64,000 nucleotides of DNA from Dictyostelium discoideum. Its lineage: Eukaryota. Position 1 is the stretch's first letter, and every line of letters begins with the position of its first letter. Of the stretch, positions 5,417 through 64,000 are shown one piece after another. The translations under genes were made by a program, and so were the position numbers. The stretch covers positions 1,728,001 to 1,792,000 of the forward strand of contig CM000150.2 in NCBI GenBank assembly GCA_000004695.1, written 5' to 3'. Below the pieces are notes generated by a model that was not told where the DNA came from, did not search any database, and saw only the letters and a program-made list of their open reading frames with translations.

Positions 5417-5948
5417 TTTTCCTTTTTTATTATAAAATATAAAAAATTGGAAATCTAAAAAAAAAAAAAAATTAATTAAACAATTTTTTAAAAAAAAATT
5501 AATAAAAAAAAAAAAAATAAAAAATAATTGGGTTAAGAATATATTTTTATTATCTTTTAAATTTGTGGAATCAAAAAAATAAAATAAAAAAAAAAAAAAG
5601 TGTTTAAAAAATATTTCATTTACAAAGAAAAGGATTAAAAAAAAATAAAATAATAAATAAAATTAAAAATTAAATAAATAAAAAAAAATATAACCAAATA
5701 AGAAAAAAAAAAAAAAAAAATGAAAATGAAAAGACAATATTGGTTTTAAATTGTTAAAATAAGTTTTTTTTTTTTTTAAATATGAATTATAATTTATATT
5801 TTTTTATTTTTTTTTTTTTTTTTTTTTTTTTTATTTTATTTTATTTTATTTTATTTTATTTTATTTTATTTTTTTTTTTTTTTTTAGTTTGAACCTTTGG
5901 TTGAGTGAGAGAAGTGGAGATAGGAAAAAAGAATTTTTAAAAATGAAT

Positions 5949-29206: not shown

Positions 29207-31400
<2,194 letters not shown>

Positions 31401-31439
31401 TGATGATGACGACATATTTGAATTGTTTTAAAAAAAATC

Positions 31440-31552
31440 TTTTTTTTTTTTTTTTTTTTTTTTTGAATGGAATAACGCAATTTTTAGTTGCTTCTTCTTG
31501 AGATATATCTCATTTTATTATTAAATATTTTACAGGTGCCTTTTAAGGTTGT

Positions 31553-31594
<42 letters not shown>

Positions 31595-31718
31595 TTGGGG
31601 GTGTAGAGTGTGTTGAGTGATGTAATATATTTATTGAGGTTTGATGGTAATGTTACTGTGAGTTCCAGTATTTGCTAAATCTTTCAAGTTGCAGGGAGAT
31701 GATGTTTTTTTTTGTATT
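31440..31718 (-). mobile_element. 5'-truncated TRE5-type non-LTR retroelement 3' fragment (3' unit plus poly-A on the minus strand) about 48 bp upstream of tRNA-Lys
   Basis: T25 at 31440-31464 is a poly-A tail on the minus strand. It is followed by GAATGGAATAACGCAATTTTTAGTTGCTTCTTCTTGAGATATATCTCATTTT, the same 3' unit that terminates the elements at 45101, 62258 and 62368. The fragment abuts the position 48 bp upstream of the tRNA 5' end (31767), in head-to-head orientation. Confidence 0.5.
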
Positions 31719-31766
31719 TTAATAAAAAAACCTGATGGAGTAAATAAATTTTGATTTCATATCAAT

Positions 31767-31839
31767 GCCCGGCTAGCTCAGTCGGTAGAGCGCCAGACTC
31801 TTAATCTGGTGGTCGGGGGTTCGAGCCCCCCGTTGGGCG
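31767..31839 (+). tRNA. tRNA-Lys (anticodon CUU), 73 nt
   Basis: GCCCGGCTAGCTCAGTCGGTAGAGCGCCAGACTCTTAATCTGGTGGTCGGGGGTTCGAGCCCCCCGTTGGGCG. This has a 7-bp acceptor stem with two G-U pairs, an A box TAGCTCAGTCGG, an anticodon loop CTCTTAA, a B box GGTTCGAGCCC and discriminator G. It is nearly identical to the metazoan tRNA-Lys-CTT consensus. Confidence 0.93.
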
Positions 31840-31863
31840 AAATTTTATTTGTAAGGATATTAA

Positions 31864-31883
31864 AGTCGAGGGATCGACTCCAT
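31864..31883 (+). promoter_or_regulatory. downstream extra B-box-like element for tRNA-Lys
   Basis: GTCGAGGGATCGACTCC lies about 27 bp past the tRNA 3' end and matches the B-box consensus GGTTCGANTCC with one mismatch. Dictyostelium tRNA genes commonly carry an external B box at this distance. Confidence 0.4.
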
Positions 31884-32298
31884 AAAAATCAATGACTATT
31901 CACCTAACTTCCTATGAGACTTTTAATGTATATATTGGTTTAGTCATGATGGTTGAACCTGGTGTACTAAATATTAGGATTGCCTATAATGAATGATATT
32001 GAACTGTTTATGTTAAGATGATGTCACTTGCAGAATTAATCAAAGTTTTATAGTGAAAAGTCAAGTTTATCTGTAAACGTAAACTTTGAATAGAAAATTT
32101 TCTCCCCCGTTCTTAATAGTTCTTCGATCACCAGTACAAAGAGAGTTGGTGATAATAGAGTTTTGGTTCGAAAATAACTAAAACTAAAGATGTTTAAATT
32201 GTAAAAATTGAAAAATAAAGTTGGTTTTGATTCACTCTTTAGAGTATTATTATATAATATTAATTGTATGTTTACTTTATAAAGTTGAATTTTTATTA

Positions 32299-32314
32299 AA
32301 CAAGATTCGAACTT
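32299..32314 (-). promoter_or_regulatory. downstream extra B-box-like element for tRNA-Arg
   Basis: The minus strand reads CAAGTTCGAATCTTG about 35 bp past the tRNA 3' end; GTTCGAATC is a perfect B-box core. Confidence 0.45.
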
Positions 32315-32347
32315 GTGATCTAACTTTCCAATTTTTTAAAAACTGTA

Positions 32348-32421
32348 CGAGACCATCAGGGGTCGAACCTGAGACCTACCGGTTCGTAGCCGGTCGTTAT
32401 ATCCAACTAAACTATAGTCCC
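32348..32421 (-). tRNA. tRNA-Arg (anticodon ACG), 74 nt
   Basis: The minus strand reads GGGACTATAGTTTAGTTGGATATAACGACCGGCTACGAACCGGTAGGTCTCAGGTTCGACCCCTGATGGTCTCG. The acceptor stem pairs with two G-U pairs, the anticodon stem ACCGG/CCGGT has loop CTACGAA, the T-loop is GGTTCGACC and the discriminator is G. Confidence 0.88.
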
Positions 32422-32453
32422 TTTGATATTTCTTGAAAAAATTAGTTTATTAA

Positions 32454-32533
32454 AACCTATTTCTTATCAAGGAGAAGCAAATAATAATTGCGTTATCCAA
32501 TTCAAAAAAAAAAAAAAAAAAACCTATTTCTTC
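32454..32533 (+). mobile_element. extremely 5'-truncated TRE5-type retroelement insertion (35-bp 3' unit plus A19) with a 12-13 bp target-site duplication, 46 bp upstream of tRNA-Arg
   Basis: 32467-32501 TCAAGGAGAAGCAAATAATAATTGCGTTATCCAATTC is the exact reverse complement of the 3' unit GAATTGGATAACGCAATTATTATTTGCTTCTCCTTGA seen at 45101 and 62368. It is followed by A19. Flanking direct repeats are AACCTATTTCTTA (32454-66) and AACCTATTTCTTC (32521-33). The element's truncated 5' end faces the tRNA 5' end (32421). Confidence 0.75.
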
Positions 32534-32553: not shown

Positions 32554-32646
32554 CTTTTGTTTAAAGAATAATTTCATTGTCCAAAAAAAAAAATTTTTAA
32601 ACAAAAGATTTTTTTTTTTGGACAATGAAATTATTCTTTAAACATT
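32554..32646. repeat. near-perfect palindrome/hairpin of about 90 bp (stem about 30 bp including A/T runs)
   Basis: CTTTTGTTTAAAGAATAATTTCATTGTCCAAAAAAAAAAA is followed by TTTTTAAACAAAAGA and then TTTTTTTTTTTGGACAATGAAATTATTCTTTAAACA. The arm GAATAATTTCATTGTCC is perfectly complementary to GGACAATGAAATTATTC. Confidence 0.8.
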
Positions 32647-33067: not shown

Positions 33068-35956
<2,889 letters not shown>

Positions 35957-38830: not shown

Positions 38831-40018
38831 TTAACAACCTTTAACACCACCACTAATTGGAACTTCACGACAAATACCAGATTTACATTGATAATTATAA
38901 TCACATGTAATTGGATTACCATCATTTGTTAATGGTATACATCTTGGAATACCATTTACCCAAGATATTAAATTATTTGATTGATCACAATGATCACATG
39001 AATCACCCGTAAAACCTTGAGCACAAATACAATGACTTTTATTTAAATTTGAATCAAATAAAATTTCATTTAAACCTGTATTAACATTAATTCTTGAAAT
39101 TTTACCATTTAATGAATAATAAATGAAATCATTATAATATTTAAAAGAAGTTGGTAAATCTGATAAAATAGTTTTCTTTGGTCCAAATGTATTTGATAAT
39201 GAAATTGAATATAATTTTTTATCAAATTGATTTGAATAATATAAATCACTTGTTGAAACGTCAAATTCTTTAATTGTATATGCTTTACTTTCATTATACA
39301 CCATTGGTAAATCACGAATATATCCACCATTACTTTTTGGACTTAAGCTACCTTTATAAATTACATTTGTACCATCATAAATATATAAATCACTACCGTC
39401 ATCATTACCACTGGTGGTGGCGGTGTTAATGCCATTTGATTTCATTTCAAAACATGGACCATTATATAAAGTTTCACCTAAATCATTATATTTACCAATT
39501 TCACCTTTAAATATTTTATTTGCATATGGCCAACATGTGTATTGAGTATTTGTAGATTGTTTGAAAATGAAATTACCAATTTGATTCCATGTTAATTCAT
39601 TTCCAATTGTATTATTTGTAAAGAATATATTACTTGTTGGACCTGCTATACGTCTTTCAATATCGATAACAATATTTTGTGATTTCGAATCAACCAATTG
39701 TAATAAACCAATAACTTTTGTATATGTTGTTTGACCAAATAATGTATTTTGTGATTTTAAATAATTACCATTTTCATTTACCTGGGGTTGAATTGGTACT
39801 GAAACTACTCTTGGTTCAAATTCATCACTATATTTAATTGTAAATAAAATTCTACCATTCTCTTTATCTATATCAATTCTTTGTCCACCATTCTCTAATA
39901 ATGTTGCATTATTTTTACATAATGTAAATGGTGAATTACCACATGACCCATTTGAATCACAAGATGATGTATATGAAATTATACCAATTAAAATTAGTAA
40001 TAATAATAATAATTTCAT
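38831..40018 (-). CDS. secreted protein with a Cys-containing 300-aa N-terminal domain and a C-terminal laminin-type EGF module (395 aa); paralogue of 40454..41626
   Basis: It has a signal peptide (MKLLLLLLILIGIISYTSSC) and conserved blocks shared with the upstream paralogue (RVVS.P...CWPY.N.....G.IG.YN.LG..LY, HCICAQGFTG.SC..CD......ISWVNGIPRCIPL...GNPITCD.NYQC). It is a single exon. Confidence 0.6.
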   Translation of the reverse strand: MKLLLLLLILIGIISYTSSCDSNGSCGNSPFTLCKNNATLLENGGQRIDIDKENGRILFTIKYSDEFEPRVVSVPIQPQVNENGNYLKSQNTLFGQTTYTKVIGLLQLVDSKSQNIVIDIERRIAGPTSNIFFTNNTIGNELTWNQIGNFIFKQSTNTQYTCWPYANKIFKGEIGKYNDLGETLYNGPCFEMKSNGINTATTSGNDDGSDLYIYDGTNVIYKGSLSPKSNGGYIRDLPMVYNESKAYTIKEFDVSTSDLYYSNQFDKKLYSISLSNTFGPKKTILSDLPTSFKYYNDFIYYSLNGKISRINVNTGLNEILFDSNLNKSHCICAQGFTGDSCDHCDQSNNLISWVNGIPRCIPLTNDGNPITCDYNYQCKSGICREVPISGGVKGC

Positions 40019-45069: not shown

Positions 45070-45100
<31 letters not shown>

Positions 45101-45412
45101 GAATTGGATAACGCAATTATTATTTGCTTCTCCTTGAGATGCTAGATCTCATTTTATTTTTTTTTTTTTTTTACAGGGTCTTTTTGATTAAAACATCTTT
45201 TTTGTCCAAACTTTTTTCTAAATCTTTTTTTATTTTATCGTCTGGTTCGTGATTGATGTTTATGACGTATTTGAATTGTTTTTTTTTTAATTGAGTTTTA
45301 TCCACAATTTCGCTTATTTTTTGTAGGCATTTGTGTTGCTTAATATTTGTGGTGTTGTTTGTGATTTTCATTTTATTTTCTTTCTATCTTTTTTATTTTT
45401 CTGATTAACTTG

Positions 45413-45472
<60 letters not shown>

Positions 45473-46453
45473 TTATAGAAAGTACTGAGTGAATTATTGT
45501 ATTTTTTGAGATGTTTAGGAAGTTCTATTGCGGGTGTTGATGATGATTTGTGACACCCCTTGTCCTGTTTTATCAATTGGTGCGTGGTGTGTTATTTTGT
45601 TTTTATATTGTTGATTTATTGAGTAAATTTTATTTGTTTTTATATTTGTTTCAGTTAGAAGTGCTGCGTCCAGCTTGTTGTTGTCTAAAACGGTGTTTAT
45701 TATGCTGGCAGATTGGATGGTGTTGGATCCTTGGACGTTCCAAACACCTATTCTTATTGTGTTTTTCTTTATAGTTTTATTTGGGGTAGATTTTTATCTA
45801 CCTTTTGAAGTTTCTGGTTTATTTTGTCTTCTAACTGATCTTTACTTTGTTCATTGTGTTGTTGGTCTTGTGTGTTTGTGGGGTTTTTTGATTTATTGAT
45901 TTGTTTTAGAATTTCCTTGTTGAAGTTGTCTATATCTTCATCCATTTTTGTTTTTATGCTTTTTTGTCCATATTCACCCAATTTTGGTTTGACTGGTGTT
46001 TTGTTGGTCTTGTTTGTTTTGTCTTGTTGTTTCTTTTTTGGTGTGTTTAACAATTTACTTGGTGAATCGATAATTTTCGATGGTGTACCATAGGTTGGGC
46101 TGAAACTCATGATATGTTTTATTGGAGAGGAGAAGAACCATTGATTTGAAGGGATTGAAAGTGGGAATTCTATTTTTCTTATTGCATCAGTGTTTGGGCT
46201 GGTGAAGTCGAAGATATCATTTGCCTCTCTAAGTTTTTCTTCCGTTGTTAGTCCCTTTGTTTCGCCGTGTTGTTTTATTGGTGTATTGTATGGAGATGGT
46301 GGTTCGATAGGTTTTTCTGATTTTGTTTTAATTTCTTGATTGTTTATCGATTGTGTATTGATCTCATTCTCTATTCTTGTTAGTTCATCTACGTTTTCTA
46401 GTGATGCTTCTATTACCTTTTGAGCTGTATCATCTAGGGCCATAAATGTTTAT
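45030..46453 (-). mobile_element. TRE5-like non-autonomous non-LTR retroelement copy (M1): duplicated 3' terminal unit plus poly-A, short 3' ORF and ORF1-like gene; 5' part cut off at about 46453 by the plus-strand retrotransposon
   Basis: On plus it reads CGAAC-T7-GTATCGATAACGGATTTTGG (mini 3' fragment), then CGAAC-T28, then GAATTGGATAACGCAATTATTATTTGCTTCTCCTTGAGATGCTAGATCTCATTTT at 45101. This is a poly-A tail on the minus strand. The minus ORFs 45171..45371 and 45769..46443 are 97-100% identical to those of the copy at 62.4-63.9 kb. Homology to that copy ends at GGCCATAAATGTT (46442-46454). Confidence 0.65.
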
Positions 46454-46578
46454 GTGGAGAATTTATACATATAATAAATAAATCACTGTTATATCTTCAC
46501 CGCCACATTCATTCCTCTTAATTTTACCCTTTTTTTGCTCATTAAAGCAAGGGCTATCGTCCTATATACTTTTCAACA

Positions 46579-47787
46579 ATGGCTGATGATCACTCAACTG
46601 AATTACAGTTAAATCATACAGATAACAACACGACCAATACAAATAATACCTCCACAACCTCAACAACAAAAAATAAAAGTGCAAAAATCGACACACCTAA
46701 AAAACAAACCCCAACAAACCAACTCTCACTAAACAAAGGACTTGATAATCAATTAGATATCATTGCACCTCCATCAATCACAAGACCACTCTCTTTCTTA
46801 GAAAAAAACAATAACACCATCAACATTAAGTGTTACTTTAATCAACCACACATCCGTGAAGAATTAACCTCAAAAGATGACACAAGAATTCAACAAATTC
46901 ACAAAAACATTCACAAACTCTTCGAAGATATACTGTCGCCATCAGCATTCAAAATAATTGGTGCAACTGCCTTCGTAAATTGCAACGTTGATAAATTAAC
47001 TTCAATAATCAACCTTCAAAACCAACTTGCACTAAATATCGACAAACTCAACTATAGATTCGATATATCATCAAATGATTATGCAATCATTAAAACATTC
47101 ATTAAAACGTACTCACCCAAACATGCAAACGATGCAATTACAAACAACCTCACTAAATTCACCAGTTGTACATCAATTGAATCATTTACTGTCACATACT
47201 CATATGCTGTTGCGTTTAAAAGCTACATTATAACATATCATCTAATTGATCACACACACAACATTATTGATCAAAAGATCGAACAACCATCTGGTATCAC
47301 AAGATATATCAAAGCTGCAACACGTAGTGTCACTAAACACAAAATTCAACATGCAAAAAATGCAGATATGGCAACAACTATAAAAAATGCCATCACAAAC
47401 CCAAACATGAACAAAAACAATCAACCACCAAAAAACAACATTAACACCCCACCAATCAACGAAATTGCAAATTCCAATCGCAATAATAACTCACTTCAAA
47501 ATAGTGGTTCAAAAGCTATACTAAATGAATCACTTGATATTAACAATCAATCCCAAAACAATAATGAAATTTCACACAAAAGTGATTCTTCAAATAATAA
47601 TAACGGGAAAAACTCTTTATCAATGAGCAATCCAACCGATCCAACAATTGTACCACAAAAACCTCTACAATCTCAACCAAACAAACCAAGTGCACCAACT
47701 CCAAATACAATAAATACAAGAAGAAGCAGCAATGCCCTGACTACACAACCAGTCAATACTGGTGCTGCCAAACCTAGTAAGGTATGA
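46579..47787 (+). CDS. retrotransposon ORF1 protein (402 aa, Asn/Thr/Pro-rich, gag-like)
   Basis: ATG at 46579; overlaps ORF2 by 4 nt (ATGA at 47784-47787). Confidence 0.7.
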   Translation: MADDHSTELQLNHTDNNTTNTNNTSTTSTTKNKSAKIDTPKKQTPTNQLSLNKGLDNQLDIIAPPSITRPLSFLEKNNNTINIKCYFNQPHIREELTSKDDTRIQQIHKNIHKLFEDILSPSAFKIIGATAFVNCNVDKLTSIINLQNQLALNIDKLNYRFDISSNDYAIIKTFIKTYSPKHANDAITNNLTKFTSCTSIESFTVTYSYAVAFKSYIITYHLIDHTHNIIDQKIEQPSGITRYIKAATRSVTKHKIQHAKNADMATTIKNAITNPNMNKNNQPPKNNINTPPINEIANSNRNNNSLQNSGSKAILNESLDINNQSQNNNEISHKSDSSNNNNGKNSLSMSNPTDPTIVPQKPLQSQPNKPSAPTPNTINTRRSSNALTTQPVNTGAAKPSKV

Positions 47788-50700
47788 GCTCAAAAATCAA
47801 CTTTATAACATGGAATTGTAGAGGATTCACTGAAAACCCAAACAATCAACACAATTCCTACCAAAAAGCTGTTGACACACTACAACTACTTATATCAAAA
47901 CTTCCACCTCGTCCAACAATCTCAATACTCACTGAACTCAATTCATCACCATTACAACTTAAACATGATTTTCCCGATCACATCATCTCTGTCACCAAAC
48001 GAGGAAATGGTGTAATCATCATTAACCATAACCCAAACACACTCAAACTCAAACACATATCAACAATTGATGGTAGAGCTATTTTAGCAGACGTTATATT
48101 TCCAAATCAATTACCAATTGGTATTCTTGGAATTTACGCACCAGCATCAAATAATACCATCAAAAAGAATTCATATGCAACTTCACTACAAACACTTCTC
48201 CACAACCACTCAACAAACCCAATACCAAACCAATCCCAACATGTATCTATTATCGCAGGAGATTTCAACTGTATCCACAACGACAATTCACTATTAGATG
48301 ATATTATCCAATCCTACACATACCAACACCATCTAATTGATCAAGGTGAATTTAAAAACACTCCAACTCATACACATGGCAACAGATTAGATAGAATATA
48401 TACTCAATACAATAGAATAGACCCTGAAAATATATATACACAAGTCCACCAAATTCCATCTTCATTATCAGATCATAATCCAATATCAACAACAATTTCT
48501 TCACCTTTTCAAATAAATAAACATAAGAAAAGATGGATATTATCACCTGGTACTGCAAATGACCATGAAGCAATCAATATTATCAATCATTTAATAACTA
48601 ATCACAATAACACATCAATCAATCAATTTACAAACTGGTCAAAAGTAAAATCAAAAATTATAAAAACTCTAAAAAACTATCAATATAACAAAGACAAACA
48701 AACTCAACGTGCAAAACAAATACTATTAGAAAAAGCAGCAAAATTCAAACATCTTGAAGAACAATGCATCGCTGAATACAATATTATATGTAACAAAAAC
48801 AAACTACATCAAAACCACACAAACATATTAAAAAAACATATAAATGGAGAAATACCTAGCAAGTATCTATCAGCAATACTAAACAAAAGATCAAAAGATG
48901 CAAAAATTGAATCAATCCAATATGGTAACATCATTACATCCGACCCCGACCAAATTGAAAATGCGTTTGTTGAATTCTACACAAATCTATATAGCTTACA
49001 AATATGTTGTCCAATTACTCACCAGCTCATGCCAAACACATGGCCCATCATAAAAAATGAATATTGGAATGGTTTAGACTCACCATTTATACAAGATGAA
49101 GTTGAAGCTGCAATTAAAACCTGTAACCCCAACAAATCACCCGGTCCAGATGGCGTTACAAATGCATTCTACATTAATCATTTAAACCAAGTTAAACCAA
49201 TTCTCACTACATTATTCAACGATATACTAGAAAATCCTCACCACATCACAACAGAATTCACAGAAGGTCTTATACACACAATATACAAGAAAGGCAACCC
49301 CTTACTCATATCAAATCGTCGTCCCATTACACTTCTAAACACTGATTACAAGATCCTCTCAAAAGTAATCAATGCACGTCTTCTGAGAATACTTCCTTTC
49401 ATCATCAACAACAACCAAACTGGTTTCGTACCCCACAGATTCATCATAGACAACATCATCAACATCAATGAATTAATCAACTACCTCAAATCTAAAAACC
49501 TCCCTGGTATCATCACACTATTTGACTTCTTTAAAGCATTTGATTCTATCTCTCACGATAGCATTAAAAGAACATTAATTCATATTGGTATACCAATAAA
49601 ATTAATAAATTTAATCCACAAGCTATTATCTGACTCACAAGCAAAAATTTCAATTAATGGTAAAACGACCAGAAAATTCGATATTAAAAGAGGTGTAAAA
49701 CAAGGTGACCCAATCTCAGCCACTTTATTTGTAATTGTAATTGAAATATTAGCAAGAACAATAAATGCAGACAATTCAATAATTGGATTACCAATTTCAC
49801 CCAATCCACAAATTAAAATCAAATTTACCCAATTTGCAGACGACTCTACAACATACAACATCAACTACGAACAACAACAACAATCAATCAAACATTTCGA
49901 TAATTTCTGCGCTTCAACATCATCATCTTTAAATTTTGACAAAAGTGCAATAATAGAAATCAACCCCCACAAAATCACTGATAAACACATAATAAACAAC
50001 ATTCCACAATCAAAAAGAATTCCAATAACCAAAAAAGATCAATCAGAAAGAGTTCTTGGCTATTTCTTTAATCATAATGGTTTACATAGGAAATTACCAG
50101 AAACAATGAAAACACTGATTAAATCATTAGTGCTATGGAAAACTAGTGGCACAACATTAAAAACAAAAACAACCATCATAAACACCTACTCACTATCACC
50201 AATAACATATTTATCATACCTTGAAGAATTTACAAAAGATGAAGAAATTCAAATTAATAAATTAATCTCATGGTTTATGAATTCTCCCGCAAATTCTGAA
50301 TCACCAACTCTCGATACCAATTCCATTGAAAACAACACATCAACCATCCATTCACGTGCAAAAATACCTTTGATGTGTTATGATAGATCATTAAAACCAT
50401 TAAAAGAAGGAGGTTGGGGTATGTGGAATATCCAATTACGACAAGTTGCTCAAAAGATTTGGATATACAACAGATTTTTACAAATGCATAAATCTGCAAA
50501 CAATTCAATATACATGATAAGTTGGATGGATCAAATCATCAACAAATCAATCTCTTCTCCATACCTTATAAAAATAAAAAAAGAATGGGAAAACTATGCA
50601 ACTCAAATTGGACATCTAAAAGATAAAGTTCAAATCCTACAACCAATAATAACAAAAAACCAAACCTCTCAAACATTAAACACAAATAATATTTCACTAC

Positions 50701-51611
50701 CACCAACACTCAAAGAAATCTACTCGACAATACTAAACAATCACCTATGCAAATCAAAAGACTATATTGGCAAGAAATATTCAGATCTACTTCTTACTTC
50801 GCACCAACAATCAATACTTCTTTTATGGAAATACACATACGACCAACTTTTTGTCAAAATTCAAAAATTAAAAGATCCAAAAGGCCGAGATACAATGCAA
50901 AGATTCCATGCTAGATGTCTTCCGATTAATCATCTACACAACAAAGTTTGCCCCATTTGCAACAATGAAATGAATAATGATCCCTATGGTCATTTGTTTT
51001 TCAATTGTCAGCACACAATCAACTTCATTAACCACGACAAATTAAAATATTTTATATATAAAAATTGCAATGGAAACAAAAACTGGTCACTAACAAAAAA
51101 CCAAACAACAAAATTATACACACTCATCTATAAACCACAAACAAACAACAAAGCATTTAAACCAGATCCAACTATCAATATTAATTTTCATTTTGCAGAA
51201 AACGCACAATATAAAAAATACAGGTTCAACTGGAATTATATAAACACAAATCTTGATCTAGTCAGAACACATGCATATTGGAACATAATCTCATTAGTTA
51301 TTCACCAAATATGGATATGGTTATGCAAATCATTATTTGACATCAATATAACTCAATCAATTGATAATTGGAACAACCAAATAAACAACACAACACTAGA
51401 TTATGATATATTAAAATCAAAATGGCACAAGCTAATAAGATTGGAATATTCAAGAACTTTATCAAACTTTAACCAATACTCAATTAAAAACAACCTCACA
51501 AAAACTCAAAAAGAAACCCAATGGTCCGAAACCATCAAAAAATTTAAAAAAGAATGGAGCATAAACACTAATGAACCAATTCCAACAATTACACCACCAA
51601 TTAATTATTAA
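47784..51611 (+). CDS. retrotransposon ORF2 polyprotein (1275 aa): apurinic-endonuclease-like domain, reverse transcriptase, C-terminal CCHC-like zinc finger
   Basis: APE motifs are INFITWNCRGF...GDFNC. RT motifs are SPGPDGVTNAFY, RPITLLNTDYKILSKVINARL, QTGFVPHRFIIDNI, FDFFKAFDSISHD and FADDSTTY (the YXDD-type box). The Cys motif is CPICNNEMNNDPYGHLFFNCQHT. Confidence 0.85.
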   Translation: MSSKINFITWNCRGFTENPNNQHNSYQKAVDTLQLLISKLPPRPTISILTELNSSPLQLKHDFPDHIISVTKRGNGVIIINHNPNTLKLKHISTIDGRAILADVIFPNQLPIGILGIYAPASNNTIKKNSYATSLQTLLHNHSTNPIPNQSQHVSIIAGDFNCIHNDNSLLDDIIQSYTYQHHLIDQGEFKNTPTHTHGNRLDRIYTQYNRIDPENIYTQVHQIPSSLSDHNPISTTISSPFQINKHKKRWILSPGTANDHEAINIINHLITNHNNTSINQFTNWSKVKSKIIKTLKNYQYNKDKQTQRAKQILLEKAAKFKHLEEQCIAEYNIICNKNKLHQNHTNILKKHINGEIPSKYLSAILNKRSKDAKIESIQYGNIITSDPDQIENAFVEFYTNLYSLQICCPITHQLMPNTWPIIKNEYWNGLDSPFIQDEVEAAIKTCNPNKSPGPDGVTNAFYINHLNQVKPILTTLFNDILENPHHITTEFTEGLIHTIYKKGNPLLISNRRPITLLNTDYKILSKVINARLLRILPFIINNNQTGFVPHRFIIDNIININELINYLKSKNLPGIITLFDFFKAFDSISHDSIKRTLIHIGIPIKLINLIHKLLSDSQAKISINGKTTRKFDIKRGVKQGDPISATLFVIVIEILARTINADNSIIGLPISPNPQIKIKFTQFADDSTTYNINYEQQQQSIKHFDNFCASTSSSLNFDKSAIIEINPHKITDKHIINNIPQSKRIPITKKDQSERVLGYFFNHNGLHRKLPETMKTLIKSLVLWKTSGTTLKTKTTIINTYSLSPITYLSYLEEFTKDEEIQINKLISWFMNSPANSESPTLDTNSIENNTSTIHSRAKIPLMCYDRSLKPLKEGGWGMWNIQLRQVAQKIWIYNRFLQMHKSANNSIYMISWMDQIINKSISSPYLIKIKKEWENYATQIGHLKDKVQILQPIITKNQTSQTLNTNNISLPPTLKEIYSTILNNHLCKSKDYIGKKYSDLLLTSHQQSILLLWKYTYDQLFVKIQKLKDPKGRDTMQRFHARCLPINHLHNKVCPICNNEMNNDPYGHLFFNCQHTINFINHDKLKYFIYKNCNGNKNWSLTKNQTTKLYTLIYKPQTNNKAFKPDPTININFHFAENAQYKKYRFNWNYINTNLDLVRTHAYWNIISLVIHQIWIWLCKSLFDINITQSIDNWNNQINNTTLDYDILKSKWHKLIRLEYSRTLSNFNQYSIKNNLTKTQKETQWSETIKKFKKEWSINTNEPIPTITPPINY

Positions 51612-51835
51612 CTACCTAATCTAAAATAACATACTATTTTAAATTCACAAAAACTAAAAAACCTAAAATAAATAAATAAAAATAACATACTAATTGTATA
51701 CTACAATAGTTTATTTATATCAAAAAAAAAAAAAATTTTAGTATTACCAAAATACACCGCTTTTAGGTAAAAAAAAAAAAAAAGTATTACCAAAAGAATA
51801 AGTTAAAAAAAACCGAAAAAAACAAAGAAATAAAC

Positions 51836-54800
51836 GAGAATTTATACATATAATAAATAAATCACTGTTATATCTTCACCGCCACATTCATTCCTCTTAA
51901 TTTTACCCTATTTTTGCTCATTAAAGCAAGGGCTATCGTCCTATATACTTTTCAACAATGGCTGATGATCACTCAACTGAATTACAGTTATATCATACAG
52001 ATAACAACACAACCAATACAAATAATACCTCCACAACCTCAACAACAAAAAACAAAAGTGCAAAAATCGACACACCTAAAAAACAAACCCCAACAAACCA
52101 ACTCTCACTAAACAAAGGACTTGATAATCAATTAGATATCATTGCACCTCCATCAAATTCACAAAAACATTCACAAACTCTTCGAAGATATACTGTCGCC
52201 ATCAGCATTCAAAATAATTGGTGCAACTGCCTTCGTAAATTGCAACGTTGATAAATTAACTTCAATAATCAACCTTCAAAACCAACTTGCACTAAATATC
52301 GACAAACTCAACTATAGATTCGATATATCATCAAATGATTATGCAATCATTAAAACATTCATTAAAACGTACTCACCCAAACATGCAAACGATGCAATTA
52401 TAAACAACCTCACTAAATTCACCAGTTGTACATCAATTGAATCATTTACTGTCACATACTCATATGCTGTTGCGTTTAAAAGCTACATTATAACATATCA
52501 TCTAATTGATCACACACACAACATTGTTGATCAAAAGATCGAACAACCATCTGGTATCACAAGATATATCAAAGCTGCAACACGTAGTGTCACTAAACAC
52601 AAAATTCAACATGCAAAAAATGCAGATATGGCAACAACTATAAAAAATGCCATCACAAACCCAAACATGAACAAAAACAATCAACCACAAAAAAACAACA
52701 TTAACACCCCACCAATCAACGAAATTGCAAATTCCAATCGCAATAATAACCCACCTCAAAATATTGGTTCAAAAGCTACACAAAATGAATCACTTGATAT
52801 TAACAATCAATCCCAAAACAATAATGAAATTTCACACAAAAGTGATTCTTCAAATAATAATAACGGGAAAAACTCATTATCAATGAGCAATCCAACCGAT
52901 CCAACAATTGTACCACAAAAACCTCTACAATCTCAACCAAACAAACCAAGTGCACCAACTCCAAATCCAATAAATACAAGAAGAAGCAGCAATGCCCTGA
53001 CTACACAACCAGTCAATACTGGTGCTGCCAAACCTAGTAAGGTATGAGCTCAAAAATCAACTTTATAACATGGAATTGTAGAGGATTCACTGAAAACCCA
53101 AACAATCAACACAATTCCTACCAAAAAGCTGTTGACACACTACAACTACTTATATCAAAACTTCCACCTCGTCCAACAATCTCAATACTCACTGAACTCA
53201 ATTCATCACCATTACAACTTAAACATGATTTTCCCGATCACATCATCTCTGTCACCAAACGAGGAAATGGTGTAATCATCATTAACCATAACCCAAACAC
53301 ACTCAAACTCAAACACATATCAACAATTGATGGTAGAGCTATTTTAGCAGACGTTATATTTCCAAATCAATTACCAATTGGTATTCTTGGAATTTACGCA
53401 CCAGCATCAAATAATACCATCAAAAAGAATTCATATGCAACTTCACTACAAACACTTCTCCACAACCACTCAACAAACCCAATACCAAACCAATCCCAAC
53501 ATGTATCTATTATCGCAGGAGATTTCAACTGTATCCACAACGACAATTCACTATTAGATGATATTATCCAATCCTACACATACCAACACCATCTAATTGA
53601 TCAAGGTGAATTTAAAAACACTCCAACTCATACACATGGCAACAGATTAGATAGAATATACTCAATACAATAGAATAGACCCTGAAAATATATATACACA
53701 AGTCCACCAAATTCCATCTTCATTATCAGATCATAATCCAATATCAACAACAATTTCTTCACCTTTTCAAATAAATAAACATAAGAAAAGATGGATATTA
53801 TCACCTGGTACTGCAAATGACCATGAAGCAATCAATATTATCAATCATTTAATTACTAATCACAATAACACATCAATCAATCAATTTACAAACTGGTCAA
53901 AAGTAAATCAAAAATTATTAAAACTCTAAAAAACTATCAATATAACAAAGACAAACAAACTCAACGTGCAAAACAAATACTATTAAAAAAAGCAGCAAAA
54001 TTCAAACATCTTGAAGAACAATGCATCGCTGAATACAATATTATATGTAACAAAAACAAATTACATCAAATCCACACAAACATATTAAAAAAACATATAA
54101 ATGGAGAAATACCTAGCAAGTATCTATCAGCAATACTAAACAAAAGATCAAAAGATGCAAAAATTGAATCAATCCAATATGGTAACATCATTACATCCGA
54201 CCCCGACCAAATTGAAAATGCGTTTGTTGAATTCTACACAAATCTATAAAGCTTACAAATATGTTGTCCAATTACTCACCAGCTCATGCTAAACACATGG
54301 CCCATCATAAAAAATGAATATTGGAATGGTTTAGACTCACCATTTATACAAGATGAAGCTGCAATTAAAACCTGTAACCCCAACAAATCACCCGGTCCAG
54401 ATGGCGTTACAAATGCATTCTACATTAATCATTTAAACCAAGTTAAACCAATTCTCACTACATTATTCAACGATATACTAGAAAATCCTCACCACATCAC
54501 AACAGAATTCACCGAAGGTCTTATACACACAATATACAAGAAAGGCAACCCCTTACTCATATCAAATCGTCGTCCCATTACACTTCTAAACACTGATTAC
54601 AAGATCCTCTCAAAAGTAATCAATGCACGTCTTCTGAGAATACTTCCTTTCATCATCAACAACAACCAAACTGGTTTCGTACCCCACAGATTCATCATAG
54701 ACAACATCATCAACATCAATGAATTAATCAACTACCTCAAATCTAAAAACCTCCCTGGTATCATCACACTATTTGACTTCTTCAAAGCATTTGATTCTAT

Positions 54801-56122
54801 CTCTCACGATAGTATTAAAAGAACATTAATTCATATTGGTATACCAATAAAATTAATAAATTTAATCCACAAGCTATTATCTGACCCACAAGCAAAAATT
54901 TCAATTAATGGTAAAACGACCAGAAAATTCGATATTAAAAGAGGTGTAAAACAAGGTGACCCAATCTCAGCCACTTTATTTGTAATTGTAATTGAAATAT
55001 TAGCAAGAACAATAAATGCAGACAATACAATAATTGGATTACCAATTTCACCCAATCCACAAATTAAAATCAAAAGATGAAGAAATTCAAATTAATAAAT
55101 TAATCTCATGGTTTATGAATTCTCCCGCAAATTCTGAATCACCAACTCTCAATACCAATTCCTTTGAAAACAACACATCAACCATCCATTCACGTGCAAA
55201 AATACCTTTGATTTGTTATGATAGATCATTAAAACCATTAAAAGAAGGTGGTTGGGGTATGTGGAATATACAATTACGACAAGTTGCTCAAAAGATTTGG
55301 ATATACAACAGATTTTTACAAATGCATAAATCTGCAAACAATTCAATATACATGATAAGTTGGATGGATCAAATCATCAACAAATCAATCTCTTCTCCAT
55401 ACCTTATAAAAATCAAAAAAGAATGGGAAAACTATGCAACTCAAATTGGACATCTAAAAGATAAAGTTCAAACCCTACAACCAATATTAATAAAAAACCA
55501 AACCTCTCAAACATTAACCACAAATAATATTTCACTACCACCAACACTCAAAGAAATCTACTCGACAATACTCAACAATCATCAATGTAAATCAAAAGAC
55601 TATATTGGCAAGAAATATTCAGATCTACTTCTTACTTCGCACCAACAATCAATACAACTATTATGGAAATACACATACGACCAACTATTTGTCAAAATTC
55701 AAAAGCTAAAAGATCCAAAAGGCCGTGATACAATGCAAAGATTCCATGCTAGATGTCTTCCGATTAATCATCTACACAACAAAGTTTGCCCCATTTGCAA
55801 CAATGAAATGAATAATGATCCCTATGGTCATTTGTTTTTCAATTGTCAGCACACAATCAACTTCATAAACCACGACAAATTAAAAAATTTTATATATAAA
55901 AATTGCAATGGAAACATCAAAAAATTTAAAAAAGAATGGAGCATAAACACAAATGAACCAATTCCAACAATTACACCACCAATTAATTATTAATTACCTA
56001 ATCTAAAATAACATACCATTTTAAATTCACAAAAACTAAAAAACCTAAAATAAATAAATAAAAATAACATACTAATTGTATACTACAATAGTTTATTTAT
56101 ATCAAAAAAAAAAAAAAAAAAA
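51836..56122 (+). pseudogene. second tandem copy (P2) of the same retrotransposon, degenerate: internal deletions, frameshifts and a nonsense mutation
   Basis: Relative to P1 it has a 114-bp deletion in ORF1 (52150), a 2-bp TA deletion (about 53660), 1-bp deletions (about 53905), TAT to TAA at 54247, and roughly 460-bp deletions at 55076 and 55915 that remove the FADD box and part of the C-terminus. The ORF fragments are 51958..53047, 53044..53673, 54286..55080 and 55034..55993. The tail is A19 at 56104-56122. Confidence 0.8.
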
Positions 56123-61844: not shown

Positions 61845-62257
61845 GTGAAAGAATTTTTTAAGATTTGTAAATGATTATTTATTATTTGAAATTGTTGATA
61901 ATTTAATCTCTTTAAATCATTTGAATAGCTTTTTTGTTTTTCTTCTTCTTGTCTATATATAAAAATAATTAAAAATAATAATGATGATGAGTGTGTTAAT
62001 GAATGAATGAGTGAATGAATAAATAATAAAAAGAATAAATAATTAAACTATTATTATAAAATACAATGATATTTTTCTTTTTTTTGAATGTTTCGGGTAT
62101 TGTTTTTATCATTGATATTATTACAATATTCTTGTTAACTGGTTGGCTCCCAGGTTTTTTTTTTTTTGTCTTTTTATATGAAAAATGAAATAATCAAAAA
62201 AAGAGATTGTTGTTTTTTGTTTTTTTCGATCTCAAATTAAGTAATAACCTTTTTTTT

Positions 62258-62322
62258 GAATAGAATAACGCAATTTTTAGTTGCTTCTTCTTGAGATATC
62301 TCATTTTATTTTGAATAATTAA
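62258..62322 (-). mobile_element. solo TRE5-type 3' terminal unit with short poly-A (mini-fragment) adjacent to the next element
   Basis: T8 is followed by GAATAGAATAACGCAATTTTTAGTTGCTTCTTCTTGAGATATCTCATTTTATTTTG. This is the same unit as at 31465. Confidence 0.5.
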
Positions 62323-62331: not shown

Positions 62332-62366
<35 letters not shown>

Positions 62367-62677
62367 AATTGGATAACGCAATTATTATTTGCTTCTCCTT
62401 GAGATGCTAGATCTCATTTTATTTTTTTTTTTTTTTTACAGGGTCTTTTTGATTAAAACATCTTTTTTGTCCAAACTTTTTTCTAAATCTTTTTTTATTT
62501 TATCGTCTGGTTCGTGATTGATGTTTATGACGTATTTGAATTGTTTTTTTTTTAATTGAGTTTTATCCACAATTTCGCTTATTTTTTGTAGGCATTTGTG
62601 TTGCTTAATATTTGTGGTGTTGTTTGTGATTTTCAATTTATTTTCTTTCTATCTTTTTTATTTTTCTGATTAACTTG

Positions 62678-62736
<59 letters not shown>

Positions 62737-64000
62737 TTATAGAAAGTACTGAGTGAATTATTGTATTTTTTGAGATGTTTAGGAAGTTCTATTGCGGGTG
62801 TTGATGATGATTTGTGACACCCCTTGTCCTGTTTTATCAATTGGTGCGTGGTGTGTTATTTTGTTTTTATATTGTTGATTTATTGAGTAAATTTTATTTG
62901 TTTTTATATTTGTTTCAGTTAGAAGTGCTGCGTCCAGCTTGTTGTTGTCTAAAACAAAAAAATTATGCGGCAAAAGGATGGTGTTGGATCCTTGGACGTT
63001 CCAAACACCTATTCTTGTTGTGTTTTTCTTTATAGTTTTATTTGGGGTAGATTTTTATCTACCTTTTGAAGTTTCTGGTTTATTTTGTCTTCTAACTGAT
63101 CTTTACTTGTTCGTTGTGTTGTTGGTCTGGGGTTTGTGGGTTTTTTGATTTATTGATTTGTTTTAGAATTCCTTGTTGAAGTTGTCTATTCTTTCATCCA
63201 TTTTGTTTTTTATGCTTTTTTGTCCATATTCACCCAATTTTGGTTTGACTGGTGTTTGTTGGTCTTGTTTGTTTTGTCTTGTTGTTCTTTTTTGGTGTGT
63301 TTAACAATTTACTTGGTGAATCGATAATTTTCGATGGTGTACCATAGGTTGGGCTGAAACTCATGATATGTTTTATTGGAGAGGAGAAGAACCATTGATT
63401 TGAAGGGATTGAAAGTGGGAATTCTATTTTTCTTATTGCATCAGTGTTTGGGCTGGTGAAGTCGAAGATATCATTTGCCTCTCTAAGTTTTTCTTCCGTT
63501 GTTAGTCCCTTTGTTTCGCCGTGTTGTTTTATTGGTGTATTGTATGGAGATGGTGGTTCGATAGGTTTTTCTGATTTTGTTTTAATTTCTTGATTGTTTA
63601 TCGATTGTGTATTGATCTCATTCTCTATTCTTGTTAGTTCATCTACGTTTTCTAGTGATGCTTCTATTACCTTTTGAGCTGTATCATCTAGGGCCATAAA
63701 TGTTTTATCATTAGATGAGGATGTGATTGGTGGGATAATGATTGTTCTTTTTCCTTGTTTTGGTATTTGTTCTGATGTAGATTGTGGTTGTTGTTCATCT
63801 GATTGTTTTTTATTTTTGTTTTCTTCTTGATTTTCTGGTAATGAGGTTTGATCTCTCCATCCTTTGTTGGAGTGTCCAATTAATGTTAGATTGTCTAGTT
63901 CAATGATAGTGTCAAATTCTTCTACGACTCTTTTCACTGTTTTGATAATTAGAGTTTCGCCTTTAATTTCTGATTTAATTAGTTTACATCCTTCATTTTC
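62332..64000 (-). mobile_element. TRE5-like non-autonomous non-LTR retroelement copy (M2) with A36 tail; extends beyond the right edge of the window
   Basis: T36 at 62332-62367 is followed by GAATTGGATAACGCAATTATTATTTGCTTCTCCTTGAGATGCTAGATCTCATTTT. The minus ORFs 62436..62636 (identical to 45171..45371) and 63230..63937 (ORF1-like) continue in frame upstream past 64000 (…KLIKSEIKGETLIIKTVKRVVEEFDTII…). Confidence 0.65.

Follow-up and report, generated by a model that had tools for sequence, protein, structure and literature searches.

TRE5-A (formerly DRE) is a non-LTR retrotransposon of Dictyostelium discoideum that targets tRNA genes; its truncated copies and the structure of DRE are reportedly the subjects of Siol 2006 and Marschalek 1992. 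The 5'-truncated LINE-1 copies of mammals offer a well-known parallel. They are likewise primed from a poly(A) tail at a T-rich nick, a staggered second nick leads to a duplication of the target, the extent of the 5' truncation is variable, and untemplated bases occasionally stand at the 5' end. The two systems differ in where they land: LINE-1 inserts almost anywhere, whereas TRE5-A is tethered to RNA polymerase III complexes and integrates at a fixed distance and in a fixed orientation. The features of target-primed reverse transcription have been summarised (PMC5391098), and non-templated nucleotides at the 5' end are stated there to be a hallmark of the mechanism (PMC5391098).

The rules that TRE5-A follows at its targets have been published in some detail. 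In a set of 1,003 mapped integrations, 80.2% fell within 47±3 bp upstream of a tRNA gene (PMC5391098), and a review gives the integration distance as 44-54 bp (PMC5911963). [quoted passage not shown] Deletions at the 5' end have been called "typical of TRE5-A elements" (PMC3159450), and Siol et al. reported that, in de novo copies, 5' truncation is often accompanied by deletions at the target site and by shortened distances (PMC3159450). A second element of the same targeting class, TRE5-C, has a homologous 3' module; this C-module is common to both elements, with a published identity of 78% (PMC3159450). Here we describe an insertion that has the 3' end, poly(A), duplication, distance and orientation of TRE5-A, together with the 5' truncation and extra junction base also known from that element, in which all that is left of the retrotransposon is 37 nt and a tail.

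Results

Structure of the insertion

The insertion was found in a stretch of 64,000 nucleotides of D. discoideum DNA, the whole of which was analysed and is called the window below. It lies upstream of a tRNA-Arg(ACG) gene on the minus strand, for which upstream means higher coordinates. Reading away from the gene, the order is 30 nt of flank, AAAACCTATTTCTT, a single A, TCAAGGAGAAGCAAATAATAATTGCGTTATCCAATTC, A19 and CCTATTTCTT, and the features are as follows:

32348-32421, minus strand: tRNA-Arg(ACG), the integration target (ARAGORN; Rfam RF00005, 57.9 bits), with its 5' end (+1) at 32421
32452-32465, plus strand: left (tRNA-proximal) copy of the duplication, AAAACCTATTTCTT, with an unambiguous core at 32454-32465
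32466, plus strand: junction A, a single base, present also in the independent assembly L001
32467-32503, plus strand: 3' end of a TRE5-A C-module, TCAAGGAGAAGCAAATAATAATTGCGTTATCCAATTC, 37 nt, with 37/37 identity to 45101-45137 and 62366-62402 (minus strand)
32504-32518, plus strand: poly(A) tail, without the last 4 A's of the run, which are counted to the right copy of the duplication
32519-32532, plus strand: right (tRNA-distal) copy of the duplication, AAAACCTATTTCTT, an exact repeat of the left copy

The complete A-run comprises 19 A (32504-32522), of which the final two to four may be derived from the target. Identity between the two flanking repeats extends over 14 nt (AAAACCTATTTCTT; 32452-32465 = 32519-32532). 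Because the leading A's of the right copy are indistinguishable from those of the tail, the minimum that can be assigned to the duplication is CCTATTTCTT; its length is 12 nt in the unambiguous part, and 10-14 nt are possible. The 12-mer AACCTATTTCTT has exactly two occurrences in the 64 kb, at 32454-32465 and 32521-32532. Pairs of identical 12-mers within 120 bp of each other are numerous, mostly or almost all of them in CAA-type coding repeats, and the feature that is not due to chance is a repeat that brackets both the end of a repeat element and its tail. An earlier reading of this DNA, made from the letters alone (the sequence-only reading), had allowed that the repeats might belong to a longer simple repeat. 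TRF shows no tandem array at the insertion except the A-run, and the duplication is therefore not part of a simple-sequence array.

The junction base at 32466 has no counterpart in either template: position 38 of the element, counted from its 3' end, is a C, and so is the base after the target (32533). The A was therefore added without a template, or it is a later C>A change in what had been a 1-nt microhomology. A gapped alignment that would give this base to the element (a 2-bp slippage, ATC--AAGG) was rejected as less parsimonious than one untemplated base.

Family identity

Of the ~5,650 nt of TRE5-A only 37 are present here; between the duplications there is no A- or B-module, no ORF1, no ORF2 and no promoter. 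The 38-mer that starts with the junction base has two further copies in the window (45101-45138 and 62366-62403, both on the minus strand), which differ from it at the first base only (C instead of A), and it has no match in 100 shuffles. These further copies belong to two much longer elements, which served as comparators:

45072-46443, minus strand: TRE5-A.2-like copy with part of ORF1, the start of ORF2, a B-module, a C-module and A28; its 3' end was taken as the reference
62332-64000, minus strand: second TRE5-A copy with ORF1, a B-module, a C-module and A34, which runs off the window and has the published ORF1 primer sites

Both long copies terminate in the 37-nt sequence, and A28 or A34 comes directly after it. 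The sequence-only reading had proposed an alignment to the TRE5-A 3' end as its check, and had conceded that a lack of similarity to any TRE5 3' end would count against it; BLAST of the last 140 nt of the 45101 copy against 32467-32503 gives 37/37 identity (100%; E = 5e-16), and the same 37/37 holds for both of the primer-validated TRE5-A copies in the window.

That the long copies are TRE5-A follows from several published landmarks. Upstream of the 3' end they have an internal A-run, a module of ~290 nt, the start of an endonuclease-type ORF and an ORF1-like frame, a layout that agrees with the published AB-ORF1-BC structure of TRE5-A.2 (PMC3159450). The TRE5-A ORF1 qRT-PCR primer Rep-109 has an exact match at 63885-63913, and primer Rep-108 is found, with one extra base, at 45240-45265 and 62505-62530. 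The C-module bases that Siol et al. chose for mutation, numbered from the 3' end of the element, were C38, A35, C26 and T15 (PMC3159450); the window's long copies have the same base at each of these four positions, and each is predicted to be part of a stem. The predicted RNA fold of the last 54 nt (-11.3 kcal/mol, z = -3.1) reproduces the published three-stem hairpin. A homologue search with the TRE5-A ORF1 returned only D. discoideum names of the type "hypothetical protein", and the family assignment is built on the published primers and C-module positions, not on protein names. In the numbering of PMC3159450, the 37-nt fragment would be nt 5611-5647 of TRE5-A.1.

Two TRE5-C-like C-module fragments are present in the window as well (31472-31553 and 62265-62320). 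They were assigned by their ~79% identity to TRE5-A, in line with the published 78%, and stand for TRE5-C in the comparison; they match the 37-nt fragment at 27/30 nt (90%) and the long TRE5-A C-modules at 79-86%. With 37/37 to TRE5-A against 27/30 to the TRE5-C-like sequences, the fragment is therefore TRE5-A and not TRE5-C.

Agreement with the integration rules of TRE5-A

There are 44 nt between the tRNA +1 (32421) and the junction A, which puts the junction A at -45 and the first element base at -46, inside the published 47±3 bp window. The insertion is on the plus strand, with its truncated 5' end proximal and its tail distal to the tRNA gene, which lies to the left on the minus strand. 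The duplication, at 12-14 bp, falls inside the published 10-16 bp range. Many truncated de novo TRE5-A copies show a target-site deletion, where this one shows a clean duplication and keeps the canonical distance. Such a structure agrees with the explanation given below, though it is not the outcome most often reported for such copies.

The sequence-only reading had described the insertion as a TRE5-type footprint, consisting of a 35-bp element end plus A19 between direct repeats of 12-13 bp, 46 bp upstream of tRNA-Arg(ACG) and with the truncated 5' end towards the tRNA gene. Most of this holds. The repeat is exact over 12-14 nt, the first element-matching base is at -46, and an element on the plus strand opposite a tRNA gene on the minus strand is indeed head-to-head; C-module identity, poly(A), duplication, distance and orientation all agree with the published rules. 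The A19 was also right; the element part has to be corrected from 35 bp to 37 nt, and an unmatched A has to be added at its 5' junction.

The locus in related genomes

A 395-aa ORF at 38831-40018 is identical to XP_647675.1 (DDB_G0268248, D. discoideum AX4), and orthologous loci were reached through this protein and its cluster members. When the neighbouring gene's large exon (34817-35740) served as the query, no homologue was found at E ≤ 0.001. In one independent assembly, L001 (GCA_054883475.1, a 14.7-kb contig), the identical insertion is present with A20 instead of A19, and the structure is therefore not an assembly artefact. This assembly probably represents AX2-214, the genome of Holland et al. 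2025 (PMC12745789); if so, the insertion is older than the split of the AX2 and AX4 laboratory lines.

Three further loci come from wild isolates (L004, L005 and L006), of a kind that has been described as cryptic sister species (PMC12745789). The tRNA-Arg(ACG) gene is kept at the orthologous site in all three, as it is in L001. L004 and L005 can be aligned with the window to the left and to the right of the insertion, and the 37 nt, the tail and the second copy of the repeat lie together in one gap; no TRE5-A strings were found near tRNA-Arg in the L004, L005 and L006 loci. There is thus good evidence that the insertion is derived. L004-L006 are ~90% identical to the window and their copy of the target has diverged; they show the absence of the insertion but no clean AACCTATTTCTT copy: the single target copy reads AAAATAGCTTTTT in L004 and TAAATAGCTTTTT in L005, compared to AAAACCTATTTCTT in the window. 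These genomes also lack 13 nt nearer the tRNA. A metagenome scan for the empty allele (left flank plus duplication) gave four matches, all of them unrelated and due to chance.

The sequence-only reading had looked to other strains for an empty site with a single AACCTATTTCTT copy, and had held that the insertion gives the exact pre-integration target. Absence of the insertion is seen in L004-L006; the clean single copy is not, at ~10% divergence. The duplication itself stands, and because the relatives' target copy differs, the exact pre-integration sequence is deduced from the duplication rather than observed.

Discussion

Origin of the insertion and of its truncation

We consider it very probable that the insertion is a dead-on-arrival, extremely 5'-truncated TRE5-A copy, made by target-primed reverse transcription upstream of tRNA-Arg(ACG). 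Its anatomy, its family, its position and orientation and its absence from the related genomes are observed directly; from the established model of this process we infer the order of the nicks and the source of the enzyme, which would be the TRE5-A ORF2 protein, and any cause for the capture of only 37 nt is likewise inferred. The RNA polymerase III complex bound to the tRNA gene would have brought the TRE5-A machinery into place, and a first nick would have been made in the window's minus strand. This nick would lie upstream of the tRNA by ~30-34 bp, where the segment that was to be duplicated has its tRNA-proximal edge. With a duplication of 14 nt this first cut would read 5'-GGTTTT/AATAAAC-3' (the slash marks the nick), a possible TTTT/AA site of the T-rich kind that LINE-1 uses. 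The T-rich 3' end would then have primed on the poly(A) tail of a TRE5-A RNA, and the cDNA would have consisted of the tail and the last 37 nt of the C-module only. A second nick, in the plus strand and 10-14 bp further from the tRNA, would have fallen between 32465 and the present 32533; joining of the short cDNA end with one extra A, followed by gap repair, would have given rise to the duplication of 10-14 bp.

Counted from the 3' end, the truncation falls between positions 38 and 37, a point at which the copying of stems III and II was already complete. The fragment keeps predicted stems II and III but only 3 nt of the 3' arm of stem I, whose 5' arm is absent. Mutation of stem I abolished retrotransposition in a tagged-element assay (PMC3159450). 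A remnant without stem I, both ORFs and a promoter therefore cannot move again. Dissociation of the reverse transcriptase at stem I, a cut in the RNA at that place or trimming of the cDNA may each explain the 37 nt. The sequence-only reading had taken the insertion as evidence that target-primed reverse transcription can abort after about 35 nt of template; the truncated insertion stands, with 37 nt instead of 35, and an abort leaves the same sequence as a short RNA template. We also considered whether the point of truncation is non-random, the reverse transcriptase pausing where a structured, protein-bound recognition element starts, 3 nt into stem I. We regard this as quite improbable: the other short fragments in the window start at different positions and lend it no support, and a single copy is insufficient to establish it. 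If it were true, a genome-wide pile-up of TRE5-A 5' ends at this point would map the footprint of the initiation complex.

A short template could have come about if the plus-strand TRE5-A RNA had already been cleaved or degraded to ~37 nt plus tail and was then copied to its end, which leaves the mechanism of insertion unchanged. Antisense transcripts start from the C-module, and an AgnC-dependent RNAi pathway acts on TRE5-A RNA (PMC4559204); RNAi acting on the overlap of sense transcripts and those from the antisense promoter in the C-module could cleave the RNA, and a break within stem I suits cleavage and abortion of reverse transcription equally. An RNA of 37 nt would, however, lack stem I, which is needed for retrotransposition (PMC3159450), and would have to have been recognised before it was cleaved; on balance we think prior cleavage unlikely, if a serious candidate. 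A later deletion, which would have reduced a longer or full-length TRE5-A insertion to its last 37 nt, has some precedent in the window, where TRE clusters have been rearranged (for example, the copy at 45072-46443 has been cut by another element). One end of such a deletion would need to coincide precisely with the original 5' junction, as the left duplication abuts the truncated end with one extra base between them; both copies of the duplication are intact and identical over 14 nt, and -46 is the canonical distance for a 5' junction. A deletion origin is accordingly very improbable in our view.

Still less need be made of two other routes to such a fragment, an origin from TRE5-C and an endonuclease-independent capture of cDNA at a DNA break, which together we hold to be most improbable. 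The C-module is shared between TRE5-A and TRE5-C (PMC3159450) and short 5'-truncated TRE5-C-like fragments do occur in the window, yet the fragment is 100% of the TRE5-A type, with 37/37 matches compared to 27/30 with a TRE5-C-like fragment. The integration of LINEs at breaks without their endonuclease is well established in general, and a duplication, a T-rich priming site and the canonical distance and orientation are not expected together from it. That the whole structure is a chance similarity, a simple repeat or an artefact of assembly might be entertained in a genome of ~78% A+T that is rich in short direct repeats; given 0/100 shuffles, a BLAST E of 5e-16, the absence of an array from the TRF output and the same structure in an independent assembly, we give this practically no credence. 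Target-primed insertion of a TRE5-A copy that was short from the start remains the reading that we prefer.

Elements and structures nearby

Short TRE5-type 3' ends are common in the window, and the 37-nt copy is the shortest of four. Fragments of ~80-125 nt that are truncated at the 5' end and finish in poly(A) are stacked upstream of tRNA-Lys(CTT) (31766-31840), at 31358-31716 on the minus strand, and face the tRNA gene. The first of these is ~124 nt long with A38, begins at about -50 and is single-copy within the window; the second is the TRE5-C-like C-module at 31472-31553, with A30; the third is an exact 25-nt piece of the TRE5-A B-module (31358-31382) and extends into the end of an ORF at 31076-31396. 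The other TRE5-C-like C-module fragment (62265-62320, minus strand) has ~56 nt and A8 and adjoins, on the distal side, the poly(A) that ends the TRE5-A copy at 62366. It is flanked by a possible degenerate duplication (GGTCATTAATTAATT / GGTTATTACTTAATT), with uncertain boundaries.

A larger, nested transposon cluster extends over 45072-56000. In it the minus-strand TRE5-A.2-like copy is cut at ~46443 by a plus-strand non-LTR element with an ORF1 of 402 aa and an ORF2 of 1275 aa that has endonuclease and reverse-transcriptase domains; a second, degenerate copy of the cutting element lies at 52142-55993. No tRNA gene was detected next to this cluster. At the corresponding place the sister lineages have an intron-containing tRNA with the anticodon GTA (L004 5161-5244), which has no BLAST match in the window.

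Close to the insertion, 25 bp beyond the right copy of the duplication, an inverted repeat (32558-32644) has 41-nt arms that are 98% complementary and a 5-nt spacer. The alignment with L004 and L005 continues across it, except for 13 nt of its left arm that they lack, and the palindrome is more complete in the AX4-type sequence. We rejected it as a part of the insertion event; it mostly aligns to the sister lineages and is older or independent. The string CCAAATT + A13 that follows the right duplication was likewise tried as a second, shorter insertion and rejected, since an A-run (A9-A11) is present in L004 and L005 and is ancestral. On the other side of the target gene, ~35-45 bp downstream of tRNA-Arg, there is a B-box-like motif (32303-32315; reverse complement AAGTTCGAATCTT), which we take to resemble the "external B box" of Dictyostelium tRNA genes.

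The spacer between tRNA-Arg and tRNA-Lys (31841-32347) measures 507 bp in the window and in L001 and 1.6-3 kb in the three sister lineages (L004 17604-20607, L005 17701-20522, L006 18038-19683). The enlarged spacer holds a 601-aa gene with a DUF5898 match in L004 and a 572-aa gene at the same place in L005; the difference is a lineage-specific deletion or insertion. At the end of the L001 contig (14640-14696), ~50-95 bp upstream of tRNA-Lys, 41 nt are identical to window 62174-62214, and the TRE5 fragments that stand upstream of the window's tRNA-Lys (window 31680-31725) are missing. Possible explanations are a structural difference, a paralogue of the tRNA-Lys locus elsewhere and a chimera at the end of the contig.

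Significance

The finding is real and its interpretation is correct; it is already known in kind and brings no new principle. Position, orientation, length of the duplication, additional bases at the junction and frequent truncation at the 5' end have all been published for TRE5-A, and as such truncation has been described as typical of the element (PMC3159450), the truncation point that the sequence-only reading had stressed is not a new insight. Beyond annotation the insertion is of little importance, and it is a clean textbook example of TRE5-A integration. Its value lies in three smaller things. The positions of the nicks at one tRNA gene are fixed to within 4 ambiguous A's, at ~-30 to -34 and at -44/-45. 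The insertion shows that a remnant can be as short as 37 nt, a size that probably escapes repeat maskers. Finally, being absent from three sister lineages and present in GCA_054883475.1 (probably AX2-214), the insertion could be a lineage marker for laboratory strains derived from NC4.
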